This document shows positions 15,787-37,927 of a stretch of DNA of 39,062 nt, piece by piece. The first letter of the stretch is position 1, and every line of letters starts with the position of its first letter. This DNA comes from a virus (lineage: Duplodnaviria > Heunggongvirae > Uroviricota > Caudoviricetes). The stretch lies in the IMG/VR virus record IMGVR_UViG_2698536355_000010; one strand, written 5' to 3'. The notes under the pieces are model-generated. The model was not told the origin of the DNA. It ran no database searches and worked only from the letters and a program-made list of their open reading frames with translations. The position numbers were made by a program, and so were the translations under genes.

Positions 15787-15832
15787 ATGGAAATCATTGC
15801 CTATCGTAAACGACAGTGATATTAAAGAGGTT

Positions 15833-15850
15833 TGTGCAGTCACCCACACA
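15833..15850 (-). promoter_or_regulatory. candidate Ogr/B-dependent late promoter element (P_V)
   Basis: tgtgcagtcacccacaca, TGT-N12-ACA with the same extended pattern and orientation as the P_F and P_O dyads; centre only about 55 bp from V ATG. Confidence 0.4.
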
Positions 15851-15884
15851 AGATGATCATCAAATCTGTTTTGGAAGGATTCTT

Positions 15885-17405
15885 ATGAGTTGCTTAGATC
15901 AATTATCTTCAGAAAATAAAAAATCCCTATTATCATCAGTATTTTCAAAGAGCTATTTCCTCTGGATTGGCTCTGGATTTTCGTACAATTTCGGATATCC
16001 AAGTTGGGGGGCCGTACTTGAAGAAATAGCAAAGCGAATAGAGTACCCGTTAAAATTAGATTCATCACAGCCTCTGCGTGCTGCAGAATTACTTTTAAGT
16101 TATGCGATGAGTGAATCATCAATAAAAGAATATGATTTCAATTCGCTCGTTGCCAGGACGATTATAGATTTAAAAACAGAAACTAAAGAACCAAGATGGC
16201 TTAAAAGATTCAAACTCTTCGCTCCCAATACAATTGTAACAACTAACTGGGATGAGGTGCTTGAAGAAACATTTGAGCATATGGCAAATAAAATCATCAG
16301 AAAGGATCCATTCCCTAAAGTATCAACAAAAGGGAAAAATATCTTCAAAATTCATGGTGACGTCGGAAAACCTGATTCGATTGTTATAACACAAAGTCAA
16401 TACTTTTCTTTTCAGCGCGAAGACACTTATCTTAGCCGAAAAATTTACACATTGTTTTCAGAAATGTCCCCTATATTCATCGGTTACAGCTTAACCGACC
16501 CAAATATAGGTTTCCTTTATGAAGAAGCATTAGCACATCTGCATGGAAAAAACCCGCCAGCATTCATGGTAATTCACCCAGATGCAAACCCTTTAACTTT
16601 CGAGGAGACAAAGTATTTATTTAAATCAAAAAATATACACCTGATTAAAGCAACCATAGAAGACTTCCTTGCAGATTTATCTCAGGAATATAAATCCTTT
16701 AAAGAATCACCTCATCGTTTCAACCTTGAGCACGAACATGTTCTTCCCAAAATAAAAACTGTAATGGATACCGTTACGAAAGGAAAAAAAAATAAAAAAG
16801 CGGAACTAGAAGCCTTATGTCCTCAAAGAGCTGCAAGCTGGGCCGTGACAAAAGCCATAATTGACATTCTAAAGAAACCAATATTGTACATTCAATTCGG
16901 CGGAAAACTTCTTTCTCCAGACAATATTATCCCCTACAGAGAGTTCGATGCTTTAGTTAATGTAGTCATAACACTTAGCAACAATCACGGTTACCCTGAC
17001 GAGCTTATACGTCAAGATTTTCATGCTTCTGTTGTCAAAATGTGCATCGAAACAGAAGGGGTTTGGGACTTCAACTATGCTGAAGTACCTTTCTCTAACA
17101 TTTTAAGAATAAGCCCTAGCCCCGGCACTGAAAGTTTCGACAAAAAAATATCCCATATAATAGAAATTATGCGATGGTCGTCCCCATCTGAAATAGGGAA
17201 GTGCTGGGCAACATGGAATGTATTTAAAGAAAAACAAGATTGGATTAGCCACAGTGATATTGTTGGCATTCTTTCGAAACTTGAAACCGATGGTGACTTA
17301 GAATACCAACCCAGAGATAAAAAATGGCTAAACATCCTGAAAAAATGCCCTCACGCAACGGCTGCAGATATCAAGAGAATTGATACTCTGATAACCCCAG
17401 CTTAG
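15885..17405 (+). CDS. SIR2-like (DHS-like NAD-binding fold) protein with uncharacterised C-terminal domain
   Basis: Motifs FLWIGSGFS (GxGxS), IVTTNWDEVLEE (TTNYD-type), KIHGD, IFIGYSLTDPNI; ATG 15885 preceded by GGAAGGA; gene strongly AT-rich versus flanks. Confidence 0.8.
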   Translation: MSCLDQLSSENKKSLLSSVFSKSYFLWIGSGFSYNFGYPSWGAVLEEIAKRIEYPLKLDSSQPLRAAELLLSYAMSESSIKEYDFNSLVARTIIDLKTETKEPRWLKRFKLFAPNTIVTTNWDEVLEETFEHMANKIIRKDPFPKVSTKGKNIFKIHGDVGKPDSIVITQSQYFSFQREDTYLSRKIYTLFSEMSPIFIGYSLTDPNIGFLYEEALAHLHGKNPPAFMVIHPDANPLTFEETKYLFKSKNIHLIKATIEDFLADLSQEYKSFKESPHRFNLEHEHVLPKIKTVMDTVTKGKKNKKAELEALCPQRAASWAVTKAIIDILKKPILYIQFGGKLLSPDNIIPYREFDALVNVVITLSNNHGYPDELIRQDFHASVVKMCIETEGVWDFNYAEVPFSNILRISPSPGTESFDKKISHIIEIMRWSSPSEIGKCWATWNVFKEKQDWISHSDIVGILSKLETDGDLEYQPRDKKWLNILKKCPHATAADIKRIDTLITPA

Positions 17406-23346: not shown

Positions 23347-25113
23347 ATGAACACCACACTGACACCCGCAGATCTCGATCCCCGTCGGCAGGCCATGCTG
23401 CTGTACTTTCAGGGATACCGCGTAGCCCGCATTGCTGAAATGCTGGGCGAGAAAGTTGCAACCGTTCACAGCTGGAAAAAACGCGACAAGTGGGGTGACT
23501 ATGGGCCGCTGGATCAGATGCAGCTCACCACCGCCGCACGCTACTGCCAGCTCATTATGAAGGAGCACAAAGAAGGGAAAGATTTCAAAGAGATTGACCT
23601 GCTGGCGCGCCAGTCGGAACGCCACGCGCGGATCGGCAAGTTTAACAATGGCGGCAACGAAGCCGACTTAAACCCTAACGTCGCCAACCGCAACAAAGGC
23701 CCGCGCCGTCAGCCGGAAAAGAATGTTTTCACCGATGAGCAGATTGAGAAGCTGGAAGAAATCTTCCATTCCTCCATGTTCAACTACCAGCACCACTGGT
23801 GGGAAGCCGGAAAAACCAACCGCATCCGCAACCTGCTGAAGTCACGCCAGATCGGCGCGACCTTTTACTTTGCCCGTGAAGCCCTGATTGACGCTCTGCT
23901 TACCGGACGTAACCAAATTTTCCTTTCCGCCAGCAAGGCACAGGCCCACGTCTTTAAGCAGTACATCATCGACTTCGCTAAAGAAGTGGAGGTGGAGCTG
24001 AAAGGCGATCCGATGGTGCTTCCTAACGGGGCCACGCTTTACTTCCTCGGCACCAATGCCCGCACGGCCCAGAGTTATCACGGCAACCTGTATCTGGATG
24101 AATATTTCTGGATACCGAAATTCCAGGAGCTGCGCAAAGTGGCTTCCGGTATGGCTATTCACAAAAAATGGCGACAGACCTATTTTTCCACGCCATCCAG
24201 CCTGACACACAGTGCTTATCCGTTCTGGTCCGGTGCGCTGTTCAACCGTGGGCGCAACAAAGCCGATAAGGTGGACATCGACCTGTCCCACAGCAATCTG
24301 GCCCCCGGCCTGCTGTGCGCAGACGGACAATACCGCCAGATAGTCACCGTGGAAGATGCGGTGCGCGGCGGCTGTAACCTGTTCGACCTTGACCAGTTGC
24401 GCATGGAATACAGCCCGGACGAATACCAGAACCTGCTGATGTGTGAGTTCGTGGACGATCTCGCGTCCGTGTTCCCGCTCAGCGAACTGCAGGCGTGCAT
24501 GGTGGACAGTTGGGAAGTCTGGACCGACTTTCATGCACTGGCCCTGCGCCCGTTTGGCTGGCGCGAAGTATGGATCGGTTATGACCCCGCAAAAGGTACT
24601 CAGAACGGCGACAGTGCCGGATGCGTGGTGGTGGCACCGCCAGCCGTACCGGGCGGTAAATTCCGCATTCTTGAGCGTCACCAGTGGCGCGGGATGGACT
24701 TCCGCGCTCAGGCTGACGCCATCAAAAAACTGACCGAACAGTACAACGTGACTTATATCGGTATCGACTCAACCGGCGTTGGTCACGGGGTTTACGAGAA
24801 CGTGAAAGCATTCTTTCCTGCCGTCCGGGAGTTTGTCTACAACCCCAACGTTAAAAACGCCCTGGTGCTCAAGGCCTACGACATTATCAGCCACCGCCGT
24901 CTGGAGTTTGACGCCGGGCACACCGACATTGCGCAATCATTTATGGCAATCCGTCGCGCTACCACCGCCAGCGGCAACCGCCCGACCTATGAAGCCAGCC
25001 GCAGCGAAGAAGCCAGCCACGCCGATCTGGCCTGGGCAACGATGCACGCACTGTTTAACGAACCGCTGCAGGGCGAATCCGCCAATGCCAGCAATATTGT
25101 GGAGATTTTTTGA
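23347..25113 (+). CDS. P: terminase ATPase (large) subunit P
   Basis: 588-aa ORF, P2 gpP-like. Confidence 0.9.
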   Translation: MNTTLTPADLDPRRQAMLLYFQGYRVARIAEMLGEKVATVHSWKKRDKWGDYGPLDQMQLTTAARYCQLIMKEHKEGKDFKEIDLLARQSERHARIGKFNNGGNEADLNPNVANRNKGPRRQPEKNVFTDEQIEKLEEIFHSSMFNYQHHWWEAGKTNRIRNLLKSRQIGATFYFAREALIDALLTGRNQIFLSASKAQAHVFKQYIIDFAKEVEVELKGDPMVLPNGATLYFLGTNARTAQSYHGNLYLDEYFWIPKFQELRKVASGMAIHKKWRQTYFSTPSSLTHSAYPFWSGALFNRGRNKADKVDIDLSHSNLAPGLLCADGQYRQIVTVEDAVRGGCNLFDLDQLRMEYSPDEYQNLLMCEFVDDLASVFPLSELQACMVDSWEVWTDFHALALRPFGWREVWIGYDPAKGTQNGDSAGCVVVAPPAVPGGKFRILERHQWRGMDFRAQADAIKKLTEQYNVTYIGIDSTGVGHGVYENVKAFFPAVREFVYNPNVKNALVLKAYDIISHRRLEFDAGHTDIAQSFMAIRRATTASGNRPTYEASRSEEASHADLAWATMHALFNEPLQGESANASNIVEIF

Positions 25114-26147
25114 TGGGAAAGAGTAAGAAGAACCGCGCTGCGGCGACGAATCAGATCCAGCTTAAAAGTCAAACTACAGCCGAAGCATTCAGCTTCGGCG
25201 ATCCCGTTCCTGTTCTGGACCGCCGAGAATTACTGGACTATGTGGAATGCGTACAGATGGACCGTTGGTATGAGCCGCCCGTCAGCTTTGACGGACTGGC
25301 GCGCACCTTCCGCGCTGCCGTGCATCACAGTTCCCCGATTGCAGTAAAGTGCAACATTCTGACCAGTACCTATATCCCTCACCCGCTGCTCAGCCAGCAG
25401 GCTTTTTCACGTTTTGTGCAGGACTACCTGGTATTTGGTAACGCCTACCTGGAGAAACGCACGAACCGCTTCGGTGAAGTTATCGCCCTTGAGCCTGCGC
25501 TGGCAAAATACACCCGACGCGGGTTAGACCTGGATACCTACTGGTTTGTGCAATACGGTATGACAACCCAGCCGTATCAGTTCACGAAAGGCAGCATTTT
25601 TCATCTGATGGAACCGGACATCAACCAGGAGATCTACGGCTTGCCCGGCTATCTTTCTGCCATTCCATCCGCCCTGCTCAACGAATCCGCCACGCTGTTC
25701 CGCCGTAAGTATTACATCAACGGCAGCCATGCAGGCTTCATCATGTACATGACCGACGCCGCGCAGAATCAGGAGGATGTGAACAACCTCCGCAACGCGA
25801 TGAAAAGCGCCAAAGGTCCAGGCAACTTCCGCAACCTGTTTATGTACTCGCCTAACGGCAAAAAGGACGGGCTTCAGATCATTCCTCTGTCAGAAGTCGC
25901 AGCGAAGGATGAGTTTCTGAATATCAAAAATGTCAGTCGCGATGACATGATGGCAGCACACCGCGTACCGCCGCAAATGATGGGGATTATGCCGAATAAT
26001 GTTGGGGGTTTTGGGGATGTGGAGAAGGCGAGTCGAGTTTTTGTGCGAAATGAATTGAGGCCACTACAAAAGAGCCTATTAGAGCTGAACAACTGGTTAA
26101 AGGAGGATGTAATACATTTTGAGGATTATAACTTAGATATTCAATAA
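25110..26147 (+). CDS. Q: portal protein Q
   Basis: 345 aa; AEAFSFGDPVPVLDRR..LDYVEC...WYEPPVSF matches remembered P2 gpQ; last approx 60 codons AT-rich and divergent. Confidence 0.9.
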   Translation: MMGKSKKNRAAATNQIQLKSQTTAEAFSFGDPVPVLDRRELLDYVECVQMDRWYEPPVSFDGLARTFRAAVHHSSPIAVKCNILTSTYIPHPLLSQQAFSRFVQDYLVFGNAYLEKRTNRFGEVIALEPALAKYTRRGLDLDTYWFVQYGMTTQPYQFTKGSIFHLMEPDINQEIYGLPGYLSAIPSALLNESATLFRRKYYINGSHAGFIMYMTDAAQNQEDVNNLRNAMKSAKGPGNFRNLFMYSPNGKKDGLQIIPLSEVAAKDEFLNIKNVSRDDMMAAHRVPPQMMGIMPNNVGGFGDVEKASRVFVRNELRPLQKSLLELNNWLKEDVIHFEDYNLDIQ

Positions 26148-26210: not shown

Positions 26211-26876
26211 TCAAAGCTCTGAGTCTACAGGCTCATGATAAAGGTTTACAGGGTAGTGTATAACCTCATAATTAAGTTGACTAACAGTGTGAGTATGTTG
26301 ACTGTAAAAAACCAATGGGTTTCTCTTACAAGGAGTTATCGAGATAGACTTACAAGCATGAATTCTTGGAGCCGATTTATCTAAATGAGCCTTCCACTTA
26401 GTCATCATTTCATTACATTTTTTATTACGCGTATATATAATTAACCCACCACTTGCACTGTCTACAGTACCAGTGCTATATCGCTCAGTGAGTTGTGCAT
26501 ACCCTTTAAATAAATAACCATATGAACCAGTGTGTTTTTTGGCCTCGCCATGCCAAGTAAATCTATTCAACTTTATTGTTATATCACAATGACCTCGTTG
26601 ATTATTTTCATGATATGCTTCAATTCCCATATCTTTATTTTTTATATTTGCCAGTAAAATTAAAGTAAGCTGATCTTCTGTTAAATCAAAATTCAATTTA
26701 TTTGAATTTTCCTCAATTGCCTGTACAGCAGAATCAAGCTCAATTCTTACAAACTGTTTGACGTTCTCATACGACTGGAGAGCAAACCTAACGCGAGTAA
26801 TAGAAGCATTGATACGCTGAAGAAAAATATCATTATCAATTTCAGCTAAACTCATTGGTGCAGACATTTTTAACAT
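26211..26876 (-). CDS. hypothetical protein, cargo operon gene 3 (possible PD-(D/E)xK-like motif)
   Basis: 221 aa; ATG overlaps upstream stop (ATGA); HCDITIK...(14)...GEAKK resembles a D...ExK motif; AT-rich. Confidence 0.6.
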   Translation of the reverse strand: MLKMSAPMSLAEIDNDIFLQRINASITRVRFALQSYENVKQFVRIELDSAVQAIEENSNKLNFDLTEDQLTLILLANIKNKDMGIEAYHENNQRGHCDITIKLNRFTWHGEAKKHTGSYGYLFKGYAQLTERYSTGTVDSASGGLIIYTRNKKCNEMMTKWKAHLDKSAPRIHACKSISITPCKRNPLVFYSQHTHTVSQLNYEVIHYPVNLYHEPVDSEL

Positions 26877-27310
26877 CAGACAATATCCTTTAATTTAGAT
26901 TCATCTAATGTAAAAAAAGGAAAGACGAAGGACTTATAGTCATACATAATCTCCCCTGTAAATGGGTTTACTAAAGATTGATTAATTTCAGCCTCTATAA
27001 CATCTTCTAACTCAAGCTCAATAGGATCATGAAAATCATCAATAAACCAATAATTGAGTTTTAAAAACTCAACCTTTGGACTACAAAGAATTTGTATAGC
27101 TGGGTACACAACCTGCTCATATGCTTCAGGTTGTATACATCCTTTATAACCATTAACGATACTAAATAAATCTTTATAACTCAGAGCTATATTAGGCGAT
27201 TTCTTTGCTCTCACACCAATTTCATCATACAAATAGCAAGCTAGCGCCCCTATATCAGGGCGCTCTGCACATATTTCTTTGATGATCTGGGGCATATCAC
27301 CATCCTTCAT
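26876..27310 (-). CDS. hypothetical acidic protein, cargo operon gene 2
   Basis: 144 aa from ATG 27310 with GGAG 6 nt upstream; tightly packed between genes 1 and 3. Confidence 0.55.
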   Translation of the reverse strand: MKDGDMPQIIKEICAERPDIGALACYLYDEIGVRAKKSPNIALSYKDLFSIVNGYKGCIQPEAYEQVVYPAIQILCSPKVEFLKLNYWFIDDFHDPIELELEDVIEAEINQSLVNPFTGEIMYDYKSFVFPFFTLDESKLKDIV

Positions 27311-27322
27311 TGCTGACTCCAA

Positions 27323-28429
27323 TTATAATATCAGCTTTGTGAGGGTTTCGAAATCATCTTTGGATATACATTTGCTTAATATAGCATAATTGACAGGAGA
27401 GCACCCACTACCACCTAAATGTCTGCGTAATGTTCCTGGAATGATAAGCTCTACACTATCCGCCAATTGCAATTTTGGATTATTCCTATCTACTCTAATT
27501 CCAATACGATATAAACCAATATTACCTACAGCTTTAATGCCCTCTTTATTAAACAGATCATCACGCAAGTCTTTCTTAGCCACATTTTTCTTTTCCTTAT
27601 GAGTGGTTCCCTCATAAGTTAAAAATGACAAATCGAACACCTTATAACTTAAACTTGAATATGGCATTACATTTTGCTTGAAAATTGGCTCAATTAATGG
27701 ATAAAAATCCTTTTCCGATGAATTAAATTGATAACCTGCGCAATTATATAACTCACGAATAAAATTCGTTTTCGCAAAAACGATATTATCACCAACAACA
27801 TTACCATTAGTATCAATTAATACATGGATTTTATTTGAAGCTGAATCTAATATACACACATCAAAACACTGACGTTTTTCTTTTCTCTTCGCAATGATTT
27901 CATCAAACTGTTTGTATGCTGCTAACTTTGACGGAGGGACTTTCTCTCTTACAACCAGCTCCCTGATAGATGAAAATACCAAAATAGACTGAGTATTTTG
28001 CTTAGAGTAATTAACAAGCTCAAGTTGATTTTTAATAGCATGCTGTAATTGAACATCATCAACAATCGTTTCGACTAATGATGTTGGTTGCTTCATCATA
28101 TTCCATTGGAGAGCATATCTATCATCAAGTAATTTAATTACTTGACTATCTACAGACAAACTAAATATTGCTTTTTCACCATAAACAACCTGCCCAAAGA
28201 CTAAATCATTTACACTTGCAATGATTTTGTCAAATTTTTGCCTATCTTTCTTTTTAAAATCAATGAGGCTTTCTAGTATTTTGTCGTTTGTTGCTTCACG
28301 CCCTCTACCTGTAGGTAGCCCTAAAGAAGCAATAATTGGTCTGGCGATATGCCACGTAAAACGTTCAGTTAAGGCTAAGATCGACTTTAACTCAAAGTCA
28401 GAAAGCACCACTGGGACACCACTTGTCAT
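27323..28429 (-). CDS. hypothetical protein, cargo operon gene 1
   Basis: 368 aa from ATG 28429 with AGGTG upstream; no nucleotide-binding or other motif recognised by eye; AT-rich. Confidence 0.6.
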   Translation of the reverse strand: MTSGVPVVLSDFELKSILALTERFTWHIARPIIASLGLPTGRGREATNDKILESLIDFKKKDRQKFDKIIASVNDLVFGQVVYGEKAIFSLSVDSQVIKLLDDRYALQWNMMKQPTSLVETIVDDVQLQHAIKNQLELVNYSKQNTQSILVFSSIRELVVREKVPPSKLAAYKQFDEIIAKRKEKRQCFDVCILDSASNKIHVLIDTNGNVVGDNIVFAKTNFIRELYNCAGYQFNSSEKDFYPLIEPIFKQNVMPYSSLSYKVFDLSFLTYEGTTHKEKKNVAKKDLRDDLFNKEGIKAVGNIGLYRIGIRVDRNNPKLQLADSVELIIPGTLRRHLGGSGCSPVNYAILSKCISKDDFETLTKLIL

Positions 28430-28589
28430 AACATGCACCTAGTCAACCCAAAAGCAATTGAAAATCGCTCTTGTCTTAATTTTTTCCATCAATATCTAAC
28501 AAATTACCTTAATGTTGAAAAAGTTTGCAAGCCATTTGCGTCTAAAAAGTGACTTGACTCAATGTGTTACAAAGCTTAGCGAGCGCGCG

Positions 28590-28608
28590 CTCGTATCCCC
28601 GCCACGCC
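28590..28608 (-). other. cos-like cohesive-end site
   Basis: Minus strand reads GGCGTGGCGGGGATACGAG followed by CGCGCGCT, closely resembling the remembered P2/186 cos (GGCG[A/T]GGCGGGGAAAGCA...GCGCGCT). Confidence 0.5.
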
Positions 28609-28647
28609 TGCCCGCTTTATGTAGTGGTTTTCATGCACCTGCATGAC

Positions 28648-28676
28648 ATAAGCAAAAGCCCGCCAGCTCTGGCGGG
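28648..28676 (-). terminator. rho-independent terminator downstream of HNH gene
   Basis: Stem gcccgccag/ctggcgggc (28657..28676) followed on minus strand by TTTTGCTT. Confidence 0.5.
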
Positions 28677-28790
28677 CATCAGCAAAAACGATCCTCAAAC
28701 GATCATGCGATTTCATGCGACATAGACATGCGTTGGCAAAAATGTACGAAATACTCAGCTTACAGGAAATGGTCTTTTTCCAACCTCCAG

Positions 28791-29510
28791 TTAGCCAAAG
28801 CAGAAACCAATATTGCAATTTGAAACTCCACAGTTGTGAAATTGATGTGGACCGACTCTTAGCTTGTGTTCGTCTCCTACAATCCGAGTCCCCTTAACCA
28901 ACATATCTAATCTTTCCACAATCAATCTTTCAGGCGCATCAACTTTAATAATTAAACGAGGACCTTTCCTTTTTTCTATAATAGTTATTCTAGGACCAAC
29001 AACCTGAACATCCCAATGCCTTGCACTACAAACCCACTCATTCTTAATTAATTCAAGATTAACAATACCTTGACTATCGTAAAATTTACCCGAAATAAGA
29101 AAAGCATTATTTTCTTTTTCAATGGTTAACAATGGCTCATTTTGAAACATTATTGGTACAGTACAGGATTCAAACGTCGCACCACCAAATATTATTGTTG
29201 GATGCCTATCAGAAAAGTCCAATATATCGGCCACATTCCCTTTTTGTAAGGCTGCAGGAGATTCCATTGCTTTAATTATTTTCTCTTTAGAGTAAAGACG
29301 TTTCGTTACTTTCGCATGGCACGTAGGACAAAGTAGTGCTATTGCATTTGGAGAGTGCTCCTTTGCATCAGCGTATGTGGGAATTACATGCTCATACTCA
29401 ACAATGGGAGAAGCACAAACAACGCAACCAAAGCCACAGCGCTGCCTTACCTCCAGTTTTACAGGTTCAGGAATTGTTCTAGATAACCCATGCTTGTTAA
29501 TAGTTGTCAT
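28791..29510 (-). CDS. HNH-endonuclease-domain protein
   Basis: N-terminal CGFGCVVC...EYEHVIP...N...LLCPTCH (HNH pattern); C-terminal 160 aa unassigned; AT-rich; AAGGTAAGG before ATG. Confidence 0.7.
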   Translation of the reverse strand: MTTINKHGLSRTIPEPVKLEVRQRCGFGCVVCASPIVEYEHVIPTYADAKEHSPNAIALLCPTCHAKVTKRLYSKEKIIKAMESPAALQKGNVADILDFSDRHPTIIFGGATFESCTVPIMFQNEPLLTIEKENNAFLISGKFYDSQGIVNLELIKNEWVCSARHWDVQVVGPRITIIEKRKGPRLIIKVDAPERLIVERLDMLVKGTRIVGDEHKLRVGPHQFHNCGVSNCNIGFCFG

Positions 29511-29632
29511 AACCTTACCTTAAAACTTCGAGAAACCTTTTATATATTGATACTATATCAACTAACGCCTCGCACAGCTCGTTGTTCAACCTTGCTGACG
29601 CCAGAAGCAAGTTCAGACGCCAGCAACGTTTC

Positions 29633-29866
29633 TTAATGCAGCCAGCTGTCGTCTTCCCACACCTTCTGCATAATTTTCATCACTTGCTTCCTTTCTTCGT
29701 CCAGTTGCAGTCCGGTCAGTTCCACACCGTTAGAGCTACCTTTGCGGATACGAATTACCGTTTTGGGATACAGGGGGCGCAGATTACGGTAAAGCTCGGA
29801 TTCAAGGGCGTCTAGGGTAGACTGGCTAATCTTCTGCTCTTTATCGATCATTATTTCAATGCGCAT
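29633..29866 (-). CDS. DinI-like protein
   Basis: MRIEIMIDKEQKISQSTLDALESELYRNL...WEDDSW resembles DinI (MRIEVTIAK...ALAGEL...TWESADDW); GAGGTGA 6 nt upstream of ATG 29866. Confidence 0.7.
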   Translation of the reverse strand: MRIEIMIDKEQKISQSTLDALESELYRNLRPLYPKTVIRIRKGSSNGVELTGLQLDEERKQVMKIMQKVWEDDSWLH

Positions 29867-29876
29867 AAAAGTCACC

Positions 29877-30065
29877 TCAACTGATGACATCCATTGAGCG
29901 GTTGTATTCGTGGGTTCTGATTTTTGCCATGAGTTCATCTGTTAGTTCAGAAACCCACTGCAAAGCCAGCCCCTTCTCTTCATCACTACACTCACTAGCC
30001 GCTACAAGCTTAAGAAAAAAATCAATGCGCTGGAGCTTCAAAGACTCCAAAAAATAGTCCTGCAT
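29877..30065 (-). CDS. small hypothetical protein, first gene of SOS-box operon
   Basis: 62 aa from ATG 30065 with AGGAGG 4 nt upstream; stop lies inside the dinI-like RBS. Confidence 0.5.
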   Translation of the reverse strand: MQDYFLESLKLQRIDFFLKLVAASECSDEEKGLALQWVSELTDELMAKIRTHEYNRSMDVIS

Positions 30066-30108
30066 CTTTCCTCCTATGACACCACAAGAAATACTGTATA
30101 CATAACCA

Positions 30109-30124
30109 CTGTTTATAATTACAG
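30109..30124 (-). promoter_or_regulatory. LexA (SOS) box
   Basis: aCTGTttataattACAGta, a CTGT-N8-ACAG palindrome with AT-rich spacer, about 45 bp upstream of the small gene start. Confidence 0.6.
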
Positions 30125-30218
30125 TATATAATAATCTTACTGATGTAAAACGTTTTTTTACGTTCATCAGCCTGATATGCCTGGTATTATTAAGAGCACG
30201 GATTGTTAACCCGCGTGA

Positions 30219-32633
30219 TTAATACAGGTTCCGCCACTTATCATCTTCCTGCAAACGCTGGTTCCGATAGAAGATACGCAGGCCTGCTCCTGACGGAATA
30301 CTGCCACCGCGAAGGAGCAAATCGACCTCTTTCTCGCTGCCATCAAATCCTCTGGACTTCAGTTCATAGACGAGCTGCTGACGCTGATACTCTGTAATTC
30401 GCTGTTTGTAGTCTTTACGCCGTTTCGGTTTAACCAGGCGTAATCTTGCTGCCAGTTCCCGGCGCTCTTTTTTGCTCATACTGTGCAGGTAATCGTGCAA
30501 CTCCTTGTCATCCATGCGGGTGATATCCGTTCTGGTATCCCCATCAGCTGATTTGTCTTTCCCTTGTTGGTTCAAATTTTCAGCAAGGGGACAGTTATTG
30601 CCACGAGTCCAAGGGGCGCAAGCGCCCTGGTCGGCTGCCGCCTCCTGAACGTCAACGGCTTTACGAACCATTTTCCACTTCACTGCATGAGTGCAGATCT
30701 TGCCCTCTGCAATGGGTGACCAGATGCCATAAATACGAATGCCGTGATCGCCATAGGCGGTCGGCTCTTCGTTGATTTCATAAGCGGTTCTGATGAGGTG
30801 ATATTTACGGGGAACCAGTACGCCGCCCTGCTTCATGATGTAGGTGGCAAAACAACCAGCATCAGCAGCAGCCAGAATGGCATCAAGGCGCGGGTTATCC
30901 AGTACCGGCGCACCTGCTTTTTTGTCACCCTGTTGCCTTGCCGCCTGACCAGCCAGCAAGCGAAGTTCACGGTAAGCCTGACGCCCCGGAATACCAAAGA
31001 AGCGGAATTGCTGAACACGATGCAGAGACGCCCAGGCATTCACGTATTCAGCGTTATCACGCAGAGATTTACCCGTTTCCTTGCTGATCTCGCCAGCCAG
31101 ACCACGACCGTCAATGTTCTTACTGATATATTTCGCGATGTAGCTTGTCGGCGTTCCTTTGCGCGGGTTAATCAACTCAGACTTAAAGCGCGGCCCAGTG
31201 TTATTGCCCAGCTCCTCGCGGTCTTCACGGATGGCAAACTTACGCAGTAATGCAGTGATGGCACGGCGGTCTTTTTTGCGCATGAAACACAACAGGTGCC
31301 AGTGAACTGTGCCATCATGATGCGGCTCAGCCACCCGCACGCCATACCAGCGCAACCCGGCTTTGTGCATCGCCTTACGAAATGCAGCAAACATGCCGAC
31401 CAGATAATCGCTGCTTTGTCTTACCGTCGCGTTTGTCCAGGTCGGGTTTGGTCTGCCGTTATTTAGCGTGGAATGGAAACGCGACGGACAGGTGATAGTG
31501 TAGAAAACGGCGCAGTCACCGCGCATTTCCGCGATAAGCTCCAGACCTTTAACACAGGCCATCATCTCATTGCGGCGATGCGCAGGGTTGCTGCTGCTGG
31601 CGTTTACCACATCCTCCATGTCCAGCGTGTCGCCGTCTTCGTTCACCAGTTCATGAGAACGGAAAAACTCCAGCGACTTACGGCGCTGCTCACGTTTATG
31701 CATCACGGCTTCATAGCTGACATAAGGAGATGCTTTTTTGCTGACCAGGCAAACAGCGCGCAACTGCTCTTCCCGCCATTCGCAACGCATCTTCCATAAT
31801 TTCCGATACCACCAGTCGGCGCACAACATACGCGCCAGCGAACCCGGAATGAGTTCATAGGGCACGGGTTTACGGCGGTTTCTTTTCCGGCGGAGTTGCT
31901 CAAACGCAGGTGGGATGACATCCAGACGCAGGGTTTCCGCTGCCACCTTTTCCCATGTCTTGCGGATTTCTTCTGGCTTAACGTCATCGGTGGCATACAA
32001 ATCACCACAAGCTGCATCAAGGCACATACTCATATGCGCAGCTACCAGGGTGGACAGGCGTTTCACCTGATCCTGACTCATTTCAGGCAGGATCAGCAGG
32101 CCGTCCAGCCCTTCATGGCTTGCCATAAAGCGAAAAGATGCAGATAGCTGACTGTCGCGTACATGCTCCAGTCGTTCCAGACATGGCTTAATCGTCTCAC
32201 GTAAATAGCGGGAATAAGCCTTTGGCCTGCCCAGGCTGCTGAAGTATTCAATACGTTGCATCAGCGGCTTGCTGATATGGGAAGGCTGGGCGTTGACGTC
32301 CGCCAGAATGACCATGTCTGAATTAAAACGCTGCTGCTCATGCGCCAGCTTTGCCCGGCTAATGAGCTTATCCTGCTCCATTTCGCGCTGGACAGGATCA
32401 CGTGATTCATTAAAGAAATAACGCTCCCAGACCTGATCACTCAGTGCCTCGCGGCGCAACTGTTCCTGCTCGTTATCGGCAGCGTACAGAGTGATCAGGT
32501 TTGAAAGCGTAGAAACCGGCGCAACTTCCGCCGGGTCCAGATAAGGGTTAATGGCCTTTTTCGGGCTGTTCCATGAGAATGCTGCGGCAGCCTCGTTAAA
32601 GCCGCAGCAGTTGTTCATATCGGCATGACTCAT
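30219..32633 (-). CDS. A: replication initiation endonuclease A (rolling-circle)
   Basis: 804-aa ORF, P2/186 gpA-like size and position. Confidence 0.85.
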
Positions 32634-33487
32634 GCACGTACTCCGTACACGGCAGAACTATCCACGCCACGCGAATAATCAAATCCCATCCAGCAGCGCG
32701 GCCCGGAAACAGCAATGATTTCTGTTGCTGATTTACCCTCGCCAGCTGCCACACCGATGCTGCGTTTTACCTTGATATAGTGGTGAGTAAAATTGCGATA
32801 CAGCGAACGGATCAGGGATGTGTCACTGTTAGAAACAATGACCGGATGTCCTTCTGATGACCGATGTTCAAGAACGGATGCCAGGTGATACTGGTCATCT
32901 TCAGTGAAACCATCAGTGTGATAGCCGGAAAACGTACCGTCATATGGCGGATCGCAATACACCACATCTCCCGCCTTCAACATCGCCAGCGTTTCATCAA
33001 AGCTGGCGCAGATAAACGTTGCTCGCTGGGCTTTTTCTGCAAATGTGCGAAGTTCTTTTTCAGGGAAATACGGATTTTTATAATTACCGTAGGGAATGTT
33101 GAAATGCCCGCTCTTGTTATAGCGACATAAACCACGGTAACCGTGACGATTGAGATACAGGAAATATACCGCTTTCATGAAATCAGTAATTTCAGTTGAG
33201 CAGTTAAACTCCTGCCTTATGTTGTAATAAGCCACCTCCCTGTTTGCGATCTCAAATAAAACTCTGGCGCGAGATATAAACGATTCACAATCAGCGACAA
33301 CCTTTTTATAGAGGTTGATTAAATCAGGATTAATATCCGCAACCAGATAGCTGGGATAATCCGTTTCCATCATCACAGCACAGGAACCCGCGAAAGGTTC
33401 AACCAGTCGCGGGCCAGCAGGAAGGTATTTTTTCAGTTCTGGCATAATGGCGGTTTTATTTCCCGCCCATTTCAGGATGGTGCTCAT
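32630..33487 (-). CDS. dam: DNA adenine methyltransferase (Dam-like)
   Basis: [14 protein letters not shown] and DPPY motifs; start set at ATG 33487 ([11 protein letters not shown]). Confidence 0.85.
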
Positions 33488-33711
33488 ACAGCACCTCCGT
33501 TGTAATGTTTGCCTTTCAGTTCTGCGATTTCCTGACAGGTAATGCAAAGCTGCACTCCCGGAATGGCGCGGCGTCGTGCTGGCGGAATTGGCGCTTCACA
33601 TTCAATGCAAAGTACGCGTGACACGCCCGGTGATTTGGCACGGGCTGCACGGATATGGCGCTGGCGTTCTTCTTCAACGCGCTGCTGTACGAGATCCATT
33701 GCATCAGCCAT
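33484..33711 (-). CDS. TraR/DksA-family C4 zinc-finger protein
   Basis: 75 aa with CIEC...(17)...CITC four-Cys pattern. Confidence 0.7.
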   Translation of the reverse strand: MADAMDLVQQRVEEERQRHIRAARAKSPGVSRVLCIECEAPIPPARRRAIPGVQLCITCQEIAELKGKHYNGGAV

Positions 33712-35633: not shown

Positions 35634-36230
35634 ATGTCAACATCAAAGTACCCAAGTGAGATCAAAATAAATCCCAATAAAGGTGGTAAGGCTGCGATTG
35701 AGCGATTAGTCGAAGCCTATGGCTTTACGACACGACAGGCTTTAGCTGATCACTTGGAAGTATCAAAAAGCACACTAGCGAACAGGTATTTGCGGGATAC
35801 ATTTCCTGCTGACTGGATAATCCAATGTGCTCTTGAAACAGGAACCTCCCTCAAATGGTTAACTACCGGACAAGGCCTTAAGCAAAGCTCGCTGACAGCA
35901 GCTACAGAAGAGCTTGTTAAGTTTCGCCTTGCCGCAGGCAAAATGATTGAAGACGGTTCATATGTCTTCGATTCATCATTTCTTCCTGCAAACCTTTCAT
36001 CACCAATTGTTGTTCAGGATGGACTCGTCACATACATTTGTGATCAAAAATTTTCTGAAGTACTTGATGGAAACTGGTTAATCAATATCGACGGAACCTA
36101 TTCCATTCGAAAAATCACAAGGCTTCCTAAAGGAAGGATTAAAATTACAACAGCAGAGAATAGCTTTGAATGTGCATTTTCTGATATTGAAGTGGTTGCT
36201 TGTATAAGAAGTACAATAGTCTCGAATTAA
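35634..36230 (+). CDS. cI: CI immunity repressor (phage 186 type)
   Basis: 198-aa ORF with N-terminal HTH (TTRQALADHLEVSKSTLANR); divergent from apl. Confidence 0.8.
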   Translation: MSTSKYPSEIKINPNKGGKAAIERLVEAYGFTTRQALADHLEVSKSTLANRYLRDTFPADWIIQCALETGTSLKWLTTGQGLKQSSLTAATEELVKFRLAAGKMIEDGSYVFDSSFLPANLSSPIVVQDGLVTYICDQKFSEVLDGNWLINIDGTYSIRKITRLPKGRIKITTAENSFECAFSDIEVVACIRSTIVSN

Positions 36231-36250: not shown

Positions 36251-37927
36251 ATGAATTCATTTGCCATCGTTATACTCTTATTAGCATTTCTCGCCCCTGT
36301 TCTAGCTGTAATATTATTTAAACAAAGTAAAAAACACAAAGCGGCTATAGATAACCTGACAGCTAACAACATAGCCCTTTCTAACCAACTGATTGAAAAT
36401 CAAGAAAAACTAGCACAGACCGTACGAGAATTATCAGAGCTTGAAGGGCGAGCAGCACCATTGTGGCAATACGAAGAATTGCACAGCGCAGTAATGGATG
36501 CAGAGAATAAGATAAAAAATGCGGACTCAATAGCCAAGCAAAAAATAGATGAAGCCCAAATTAAGGCGGCTAAAACAGTAAACGAAGCAAATTATCAAGC
36601 TCAGATGACAATAAGCAACGCTAATAGCGAAGCTATAGCAATCACCAAAGACGCTCGCGATGCACGCCTGAAAGCCAAAGAACGTCTTGATAATGCTAAT
36701 AATAAAGCAAATGAGCTAATCTCAAATGCTAATGACAATGCAGTAAAAATTATTTCTGATGCAGAAGAAAGAGCAAAGGAGATTGCTGGTTCAGCATATG
36801 AAGCTAAAGAGTTTGCAGAAAAATATGAAGCAGTTGCAAAATCAATGAAAAATAAAATTGAAGGTTATGGTGATGAATGGATCATCCCTAACCGTAGTGT
36901 ACTTGATGAGCTGGCAGAAAATTATGAATTTACAGATGCAGGCAAGGAATTACAAAAAGCCAGAGAGTTAACCAAATCATTAATAAAAACTAATAAAGCT
37001 GCTTCGTGTGATTATGTTGAGCAAAACAGGCGTAATACTGCCATAAACTTTGTTTTGGATGCCTTCAATGGAAGAGTTGACAGTATTTTATCAAAAGTCA
37101 AACACAACAATTTTGGAAAACTTTCCCAAGAAATAAAAGATGCATTTCAACTAGTAAATTACAATGGCTCTGCCTTTAGGTCCGCAAAAATAAGTGACAT
37201 CTATCTTCAGGCAAGACTCAACGAGCTAAAATGGGGTGTAGCAGTTAATGAAATTATGCTCGAAGAAAAAGAAGAGCAAAGAAGGATTAAAGAACAGCTT
37301 CGTGAAGAGGAAAGAGCTCGTAGAGAATATGAAAAAGCGATAAAAGAAGCTGAAAAAGAAGAAAAAGCTATTCAGCAAGCTATAAATAAAGCAACGAAAG
37401 AACTTATGCTTGCAAATGAAGAACAACGCTTAGCTTTAGAGCAAAAAATAGCTGAACTACAGTTAAAATATGAAGAAGCTGAAGCTAAAAATCAACGAGC
37501 TATTTCTATGGCTCAACAAACCAGATCAGGCCACGTCTATATCATTAGTAATATTGGTTCATTTGGCGAAGATGTATATAAAATTGGAATGACACGCCGC
37601 CTTGAACCACTTGATCGTGTTCGTGAACTCGGAGATGCTAGTGTTCCTTTTTCGTTCGATGTTCATGCGATGATTTATAGTGATGATGCACCATCATTAG
37701 AAAACCATCTGCATAAAGTTTTCAACGAAAAGCAGGTCAATAAAATTAACTCACGAAAAGAGTTTTTTAACGTAAATTTAAAAGAAATCAAATCAGTTAT
37801 TGAAGACATGAACATCAACGCCCACTGGACAATGTTTGCAGAGGCGAAAGAATATAGAGAGTCTCTAGCTATTGAGCAGGAGCGCAAAGCAGCCACTTCC
37901 GCCAACGATGAACTACATGTTGCTTAG
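36251..37927 (+). CDS. membrane-anchored coiled-coil protein with C-terminal T5orf172/GIY-YIG-like domain
   Basis: N-terminal TM helix (FAIVILLLAFLAPVLAVILF), roughly 400 aa A/E/K/N-rich coiled coil, C-terminus VYIISNIGSFGEDVYKIGMTRR...PFSFDV...LENHLHKVF...EFF; AT-rich; AGGA before ATG. Confidence 0.75.
   Translation: MNSFAIVILLLAFLAPVLAVILFKQSKKHKAAIDNLTANNIALSNQLIENQEKLAQTVRELSELEGRAAPLWQYEELHSAVMDAENKIKNADSIAKQKIDEAQIKAAKTVNEANYQAQMTISNANSEAIAITKDARDARLKAKERLDNANNKANELISNANDNAVKIISDAEERAKEIAGSAYEAKEFAEKYEAVAKSMKNKIEGYGDEWIIPNRSVLDELAENYEFTDAGKELQKARELTKSLIKTNKAASCDYVEQNRRNTAINFVLDAFNGRVDSILSKVKHNNFGKLSQEIKDAFQLVNYNGSAFRSAKISDIYLQARLNELKWGVAVNEIMLEEKEEQRRIKEQLREEERARREYEKAIKEAEKEEKAIQQAINKATKELMLANEEQRLALEQKIAELQLKYEEAEAKNQRAISMAQQTRSGHVYIISNIGSFGEDVYKIGMTRRLEPLDRVRELGDASVPFSFDVHAMIYSDDAPSLENHLHKVFNEKQVNKINSRKEFFNVNLKEIKSVIEDMNINAHWTMFAEAKEYRESLAIEQERKAATSANDELHVA

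Follow-up and report, generated by a model that had tools for sequence, protein, structure and literature searches.

Is the HNH protein encoded beside the cos site of this prophage a part of the packaging machinery, or is it cargo? The gene in question (28791..29510, minus strand) lies in a window of 39,062 nucleotides, the whole stretch of DNA analysed here, which presents a 186/P2-like prophage in reverse orientation. A first-pass annotation had placed an AT-rich gene for a 239-residue protein with an N-terminal HNH motif between an SOS-box/DinI-like module and cos, where P2 carries old and tin, and had proposed for it either a role as a defence nuclease or one as an accessory to cos cleavage.

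The open reading frame starts with ATG and its product is identical to WP_000207842; in E. coli CI5 the same 720-bp coding sequence is annotated by RefSeq. The gene has a GC content of 0.382 and a GC3 of 0.279, compared with 0.53 and 0.573 for gpA of the same prophage, and a Shine-Dalgarno-like AAGGTAAGG can be read from the sequence at 29514..29522 (-), 3 nt before the ATG. The AT-rich composition (38% GC) and the ribosome-binding site of its own that had been described for the gene are thus both borne out. The N-terminal HNH nuclease domain (residues 1–85; 29256..29510, -) consists of a basic leader helix followed by CxxC...EH...H...CxxCH, and residues 29–71 match the Pfam HNH family (PF01844) with 24.8 bits, above the cut-off of 21.4. 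The remainder of the protein (residues 86–239; 28794..29255, -) is an all-beta domain of about 17 strands with a conserved NEW...WD motif. Past the HNH motif nothing was recognised in the protein by Pfam, NCBIfam or PADLOC. The full-length sequence matches phrog_6544 (E 2.5e-111), to which PHROGs assigns no function, and PADLOC-DB v2.0.0 returned no significant system-specific match, the top hit being mREase_IV (E 0.0095; HNH motif only). That the gene is real follows from its 269 homologous clusters at 90% identity, the invariant catalytic and zinc motif and a confident structure model, all described below.

Directly 5' of the HNH gene lies a DinI-like gene (29633..29866, -; Pfam DinI, 1.3e-22; annotated by RefSeq in CI5), preceded by a 62-residue ORF (orf62; 29877..30065, -; PHROGs match to phrog_698, and RefSeq of CI5). 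Both belong to the phage backbone. Upstream of them is a perfect LexA box, TACTGTAATTATAAACAG (30109..30126, -), which matches nowhere else in the window (chance expectation 0.03). Farther upstream come gpA, the replication endonuclease (30219..32633, -), and a D12-class adenine methylase (32630-33547, -). The operon headed by the box (orf62 and the DinI-like gene; 29562-30140, -) sits at what we take to be the position of the LexA-controlled tum antirepressor operon of phage 186 and, together with the 186-type CI, CII and Fil genes, suggests from gene content an SOS-inducible 186-like phage.

On the other side of the HNH gene an intrinsic terminator, GCCCGCCAGAGCTGGCGGGC followed by TTTTGC (28658..28677, -; an 8-bp GC stem, then UUUUGCUU), precedes the P2-family cos core GGCGTGGCGGGGATACGAG (28590..28608, -), which aligns with P2 cosR, GGCGAGGCGGGGAAAGCAC, at the end of NC_001895. 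A distance of 183 bp separates the end of the gene from the cos core. The terminator belongs to the backbone, being common to phages that do not carry the HNH gene, where it forms part of a conserved flank. Beyond cos and further cargo are the gpQ portal gene (25110..26147, +) and the gpP terminase gene (23347-25113), the latter more than 3.6 kb from the HNH gene. In P2 (NC_001895), tin and old occupy the equivalent interval, from orf91 to cosR; their transcription leads away from cos, that of the HNH gene towards it. The placement between the SOS module and cos, the terminator just before cos and the correspondence with the old/tin position therefore hold as first described, with the orientation reversed.

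The interval between gpA and gpQ in P2-like prophages is a known hotspot and reservoir of anti-phage systems, and the only region that P2 has in common with its parasite P4 is cos (Rousset et al. 2022, PMC9122126). The HNH gene lies between these two boundary genes and varies among otherwise similar prophages. It forms, together with 51 bp upstream and 59 bp downstream, an optional cassette of 830 bp (28732..29561) set between backbone flanks. These limits derive from phage vB_EcoM-813R9 and from E. coli prophages in which the flanks are contiguous: in vB_EcoM-813R9 only 9 bp separate the flank with cos and the terminator (28583-28731) from the one with the 3' end of the DinI gene (29562-29800). 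The empty junction reads ...catagacatgc, then the 9 bp ACTACAGAG, then ctaacgcc..., and it is these 9 bp that the cassette replaces. Among 5,426 complete E. coli genomes, either or both flanks were found in 1,279; the DinI–cos junction is empty in 328 and filled by the HNH cassette in 21 (99.1–99.9% identity; annotated as 'HNH endonuclease'). Three sampled genomes carry unrelated cassettes at the same junction, namely pairs of small coiled-coil and transmembrane proteins in CFT073 and 1002W03 and a 141-residue protein in USMARC-50748; that these might be diverged HNH genes was ruled out by BLASTP. We also observed that several unrelated cassettes have an identical right-hand junction (ctaacgcctcgca...) and a nearly identical left-hand one (...catagacatgc). 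Such shared junctions point to a defined exchange point within the hotspot, on the side of cos that faces DinI. The HNH gene is cargo of the gpA–gpQ hotspot, a cassette complete in itself and exchanged horizontally, with defined boundaries and an optional, mobile distribution.

A second cargo island of the window lies on the opposite side of cos. Between cos and gpQ, three co-oriented genes that overlap or abut each other (26211..28438, -; 371, 148 and 221 residues; phrogs 12777, 11490 and 9664; GC 0.34) gave no match in Pfam, PADLOC or NCBIfam. Of the complete E. coli genomes, 21 have all three together as a unit, at more than 99% identity in 12 and about 85% in nine. In all 21 the match ends at the cos flank and the HNH cassette is absent, and the HNH-bearing genomes do not have the block. 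A link between the HNH gene and the three-gene block is ruled out by this zero co-occurrence in complete E. coli genomes, and the combination found in the window represents a recombinant of two modules. The block was not found in the portion of Table S5 of Rousset et al. (2022, PMC9122126) available to us and is likely an uncharacterised three-gene hotspot system.

Across cos from the HNH gene or its homologs, the partners vary between prophages: a 555-residue P-loop/KAP-NTPase-like protein in E. coli CI5, a RES-domain protein of 384 residues in Citrobacter, a reverse transcriptase in Cronobacter and an AAA_15/21 ATPase pair in Hafnia, to which published locus tables (Rousset et al. 2022, Table S5A, PMC9122126) add TIR-like proteins and others. 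This variation and the separation from the three-gene block indicate that the HNH gene is independent of its neighbours. A RES-domain protein of 459 residues is also found in Enterobacter lambdoid prophages, downstream of the HNH homolog by two small ORFs; its appearance in two unrelated element types may be a coincidence within cargo regions or reflect a loose association, and the E. coli HNH copies have neighbours other than RES.

Two more cargo genes of the prophage match PADLOC defence models. A SIR2_2-domain protein of 529 residues (15816-17405, +; PDC-S25/ThsA-like, E 8e-29) is encoded in an AT-rich island (GC about 0.37) among the tail genes, which is the Z/fun cargo locus of P2. The gene for a protein of 558 residues with DUF4041 and T5orf172 domains (36251-37927, +; PD-Lambda-1, E 2.4e-120) has the CI repressor gene (35634-36230) on one side and the integrase gene (38010-) on the other, an insertion which by this match is a putative third site for defence cargo in the prophage.

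The protein itself has been listed before. An identical sequence from the same locus is curated system #159 in Table S5B of Rousset et al. (2022, PMC9122126), named 'HNH', with 11 occurrences and the comment 'Likely a nuclease', an entry given there without domain analysis or distribution; WP_000207842 recurs in their Table S5A. Among the nine supplementary files of that paper the sequence is present in Table S5 only and is absent from the table of tested systems. No phenotype test of WP_000207842 was found in the Domainator paper, DefensePredictor or the 2026 P2/P4 paper in NAR; the last of these, on the hotspots, tested P4 loci only. The accession appeared in no paper's main text in our literature search. 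Already published, then, are the hotspot, the idea that its cargo is swappable, and the candidacy of this very protein; what the present analysis clarifies are the defined cassette boundaries, the absence of a tie to the three-gene block and of a packaging role, and a broad two-domain family without a partner gene.

This family comprises 269 clusters at 90% identity, and a search with the C-terminal domain alone among 1.84 billion representatives yielded 462 clusters at 50% identity. Relatives occur in at least 234 species-representative genomes, from Proteobacteria, Cyanobacteria, Bacteroidota, Chloroflexi, Planctomycetes, Nitrospirota and Saccharibacteria to two archaeal MAGs. In the same search we asked whether the C-terminal domain is a promiscuous sensor shared with other effectors, and this was rejected: every N-terminal region present was the same HNH domain. 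Matches of about 165 residues consisting of the C-terminal domain only look like truncated calls, as they start at the conserved internal Met82 or inside the domain. About a quarter of the relatives are longer and carry extra C-terminal TPR, SEC-C or Zn-chelating CxxCxxCC modules. Of 71 family members, 39 match PF01844. Across the family, the invariant positions are N5, G8, L9, R22, G26, G28, C29, C32, H41, P44, A49, H52, L60, C61, P85, N157, W166, D167 and M203; E40 and C64 are conserved at 97–98%, and the terminal CxxC-H becomes CxxC-N in a lambdoid subclade (H65 to N). All the residues expected of the active and zinc sites (E40-H41, H52, C29/C32/C61/C64 and H65) are therefore invariant or conserved to at least 97%, apart from N65 in that one subclade, a pattern which by sequence is that of a zinc-ribbon HNH domain with a putative E-H general-base/metal pair. 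PADLOC applied to the 71 relatives gave scattered weak HNH-type matches only, including weak ones to the 'HEase' model in three.

The genomic settings of the homologs are diverse. In Citrobacter, Cronobacter and Hafnia they lie in the gpA–gpQ hotspot of P2-like prophages, 3' of a LexA box (CTGT-N8-ACAG) and a small ORF and in the same orientation. In Erwinia billingiae the homolog is found between gpV and gpS, i.e. at Z/fun, the second recognised cargo site of P2. Lambdoid prophages of Klebsiella, Enterobacter and E. coli encode relatives of 259–261 residues after the replication genes O and P, among the accessory genes of the nin region. In Acinetobacter a homolog is the neighbour of BrnT/A and of an AAA_15/21 ATPase on small Rep3/MobA plasmids, and Pseudomonas has one in a prophage, oriented opposite to its neighbours. 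In a sample of 62 diverse genomes (two genes on either side, 150 ORFs) no gene family recurred in more than three of the 150 neighbours, which argues that there is no partner gene. PADLOC matches (E < 1e-8) made up about 7% of these 150 neighbours and about 6% of 133 genes located 8–9 positions away, a comparison based on crude ORF calling and on no true genomic background. Many of the neighbours in diverse genomes are housekeeping genes, and the homologs are sporadic singletons across bacteria and archaea.

The protein was modelled with AlphaFold2 from a 71-sequence alignment (pLDDT 95.7; pTM 0.88). In the model, residues 1–90 form the HNH domain, a basic helix plus an HNH core with the beta-beta-alpha-metal fold, and superpose on the HNH domains of Cap5, McrA, IscB and GVE2. 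The closest solved HNH domains are those of the immune nucleases Cap5, EcoKMcrA and ScoMcrA (the latter at 26–28% identity over about 79 residues in Foldseek), with further good matches to IscB, a type I-E Cascade subunit (CasD chain, 'I-E HNH' complex), the HNH protein of phage GVE2 and P1 Ref. The Ref match ranks below those to Cap5 and McrA and is confined to the HNH core. The homology and structure search that had been proposed for the C-terminal domain gave a blank: the all-beta domain has no Pfam match and no counterpart among solved structures, be it SRA, PUA, McrA-N, SBD or any other known sensor or reader domain. Its median charge across the family is mildly acidic (-3), compared with +3.8 for the basic HNH domain, which argues against a classical DNA-binding module.

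These features distinguish the protein from the known systems to which it can be compared. Like P2 old/tin, the gene is optional AT-rich cargo in the map interval from the replication region to cos, and Old is also a nuclease. However, Old combines an ABC-ATPase with TOPRIM and has no sequence or fold relationship to the HNH and beta domains found here; moreover, old and tin have their own promoter, whereas the HNH gene apparently depends on the LexA-box operon. In the type IV HNH enzymes (EcoKMcrA of prophage e14, ScoMcrA, TagI, VcaM4I) the order of domains is the reverse, the reader being N-terminal in McrA, and the acidic C-terminal domain described here matches none of the type IV readers (McrA-N, SRA, SBD, PUA/EVE), which it also differs from in not being basic. 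Unlike the CBASS effector Cap5 (HNH-SAVED), the protein has no SAVED domain and, among the neighbours checked, no adjacent CD-NTase or operon partner. With the terminase-associated HNH proteins (HK97 gp74 type; GVE2 HNH) it shares the HNH fold and proximity to cos. It differs from them in having double the size and an additional domain, and its gene is neither conserved in the lineage nor a neighbour of the terminase.

How the gene is expressed bears on its function. No sigma-70-like promoter was recognised on the gene strand in the 120 bp upstream, and neither a structured RNA nor a promoter specific to the gene was convincing. The hairpin after DinI has no U-tract, so that the sole canonical (U-tract) terminator of the operon is the backbone one that comes after the HNH gene. 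With the cassette set between the DinI-like gene and this terminator, and no convincing promoter within it, transcription of the gene probably reads through from the LexA-controlled promoter of the SOS operon. By eye, the upstream DNA of the homologs in Hafnia, on the Acinetobacter plasmids and in one E. coli lambdoid prophage apparently contains its own terminator and/or promoter-like elements. A palindrome, TTGATATAGTATCAA (TTGATA-TAG-TATCAA; 29548-29562, -), was noted inside the cassette, 38 nt upstream of the start codon; its conservation does not extend to the Citrobacter version and its significance seems doubtful.

Which function, then, best fits these observations? The proposal that prompted the comparison with packaging enzymes, an HNH accessory to terminase-mediated cos cleavage as in HK97-like phages, has in its favour the 183 bp between gene and cos core. 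It is contradicted by the empty slot next to the same cos flank in 328 E. coli genomes, by the P2 interval, which has no HNH-annotated gene, and by homologs in tail-gene, nin-region, plasmid and chromosomal contexts, far from cos and packaging genes. The P2 terminase (gpP/gpM) needs no HNH factor to cut cos, and packaging HNH proteins are single-domain proteins of about 100–120 residues, unlike the two-domain protein described here, which moreover is not encoded adjacent to the terminase genes. We consider this role highly improbable, and the corresponding part of the first-pass annotation finds no support. A selfish, free-standing homing-type HNH endonuclease, which would spread by cutting alleles that lack the cassette and bring no benefit to phage or host, would account for the precise insertion of a single gene that replaces 9 bp between conserved flanks, for its rarity relative to empty sites (21 against 328 genomes), for singleton copies among housekeeping genes in many taxa and for the weak 'HEase' matches. 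Phage HNH homing enzymes have an N-terminal HNH and an extra C-terminal domain, a layout that the 239-residue protein resembles. Yet the same junction accepts several unrelated cassettes, the family is spread over at least four kinds of locus instead of one cognate target, and in P2-like phages the divergence of the HNH gene (86%, 61% and 53% identity) follows that of host and phage. No disrupted intein or intron, the context that had been named as evidence for homing, was seen around the gene, and the acidic all-beta domain of the family contains no NUMOD, IENR or HTH module. Being free-standing, at home in several unrelated loci and in a slot shared with unrelated cassettes, the gene was not assigned to the homing endonucleases, and this explanation is very unlikely.

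Two further possibilities assign the nuclease to the phage or element itself. It could be an induction-phase enzyme, expressed with the LexA-controlled tum/DinI-like operon and serving the phage instead of protecting the lysogen, for instance by degrading host or competitor DNA or in RecA/DinI-linked recombination like P1 Ref. The gene follows orf62 and DinI directly and in the same orientation, the only U-tract terminator is 3' of it, no promoter of its own was recognised, each of the four P2-like hosts examined has a LexA box ahead of the equivalent operon, and the lambdoid relatives reside in the replication/nin region, which is home to recombination nucleases too. On the other hand, the LexA/DinI module is backbone and is present in hundreds of prophages without the cassette, so that its adjacency to the HNH gene follows from the position of the hotspot. 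The relatives on plasmids, at Z/fun and in chromosomes have no SOS or DinI context, and the limited match to Ref mentioned above is weaker than those to Cap5 and McrA. On balance an induction-phase role is unlikely. Distinctly unlikely is a weapon or addiction module in the competition among mobile elements, directed against P4-type satellites or plasmids or acting as an element-stabilising toxin. The location next to cos, the one region that P2 and P4 share, and the plasmid copies beside a BrnT/A toxin–antitoxin pair would fit such a role, but no antitoxin-like partner was present at any locus sampled. The lack of an evident immunity gene, by which the activity of the protein must be conditional, was likewise counted in favour of such a role.

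The explanation we favour, with a probability of roughly 55%, is that of a single-protein HNH exclusion or defence nuclease whose beta domain regulates or targets the nuclease and which is probably expressed by read-through from the SOS operon. The basic N-terminal HNH domain, with its zinc ribbon (CxxC/CxxC) and a metal/base site at E40-H41...H65, would cut incoming DNA, be it from a superinfecting phage or from another invading element. Fused tightly to it, the mildly acidic all-beta domain would restrain or license the nuclease so that the lysogen's own DNA is spared, and may do so by sensing, by oligomerisation or by conferring specificity. Transcription of the cassette from the LexA-controlled promoter would be at a basal level in the lysogen and increase upon SOS. 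Nuclease activity, an anti-phage role, the function of the C-terminal domain and SOS-linked expression are what we infer for this protein. A defence function is suggested by membership of the hotspot, the optional nature of the cassette, its independence from neighbours and its relatives in other accessory loci; by invariant catalytic and zinc residues, the immune nucleases as closest solved HNH domains, the sporadic distribution without a partner and the added modules in long variants; and by the other cargo of the same prophage, with SIR2 at Z/fun and PD-Lambda-1 next to CI both matching PADLOC defence models. Against it stand the lack of a PADLOC family match, the absence of a clear defence-island signal in diverse genomes and a C-terminal domain without likeness to known sensors or readers. 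LexA-repressed read-through would also be odd for a constitutive defence of the lysogen, given that P2 old/tin have their own promoter, and counts against this reading. The earlier suggestion of cargo that might be a defence nuclease is supported by its context, namely the optional hotspot cassette, entry #159, the independence from neighbours and the relatives in accessory loci; the defence role as such keeps the probability stated above.

A broader proposal, which we hold more tentatively and at somewhat less than even odds, is that the whole family consists of widely scattered single-protein immune nucleases in which an acidic all-beta sensor checks the HNH domain, and that expression has become SOS-wired in 186/P2-like prophages. 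If this were true, the defence would be switched on by DNA damage or prophage induction instead of being constitutive, and such a coupling to a LexA operon, if confirmed, would be an uncommon way to control a defence carried by a prophage. Confirmation of the defence function would add one more compact single-gene nuclease, of only 239 residues, to the anti-phage repertoire, together with a structurally unassigned regulatory domain.
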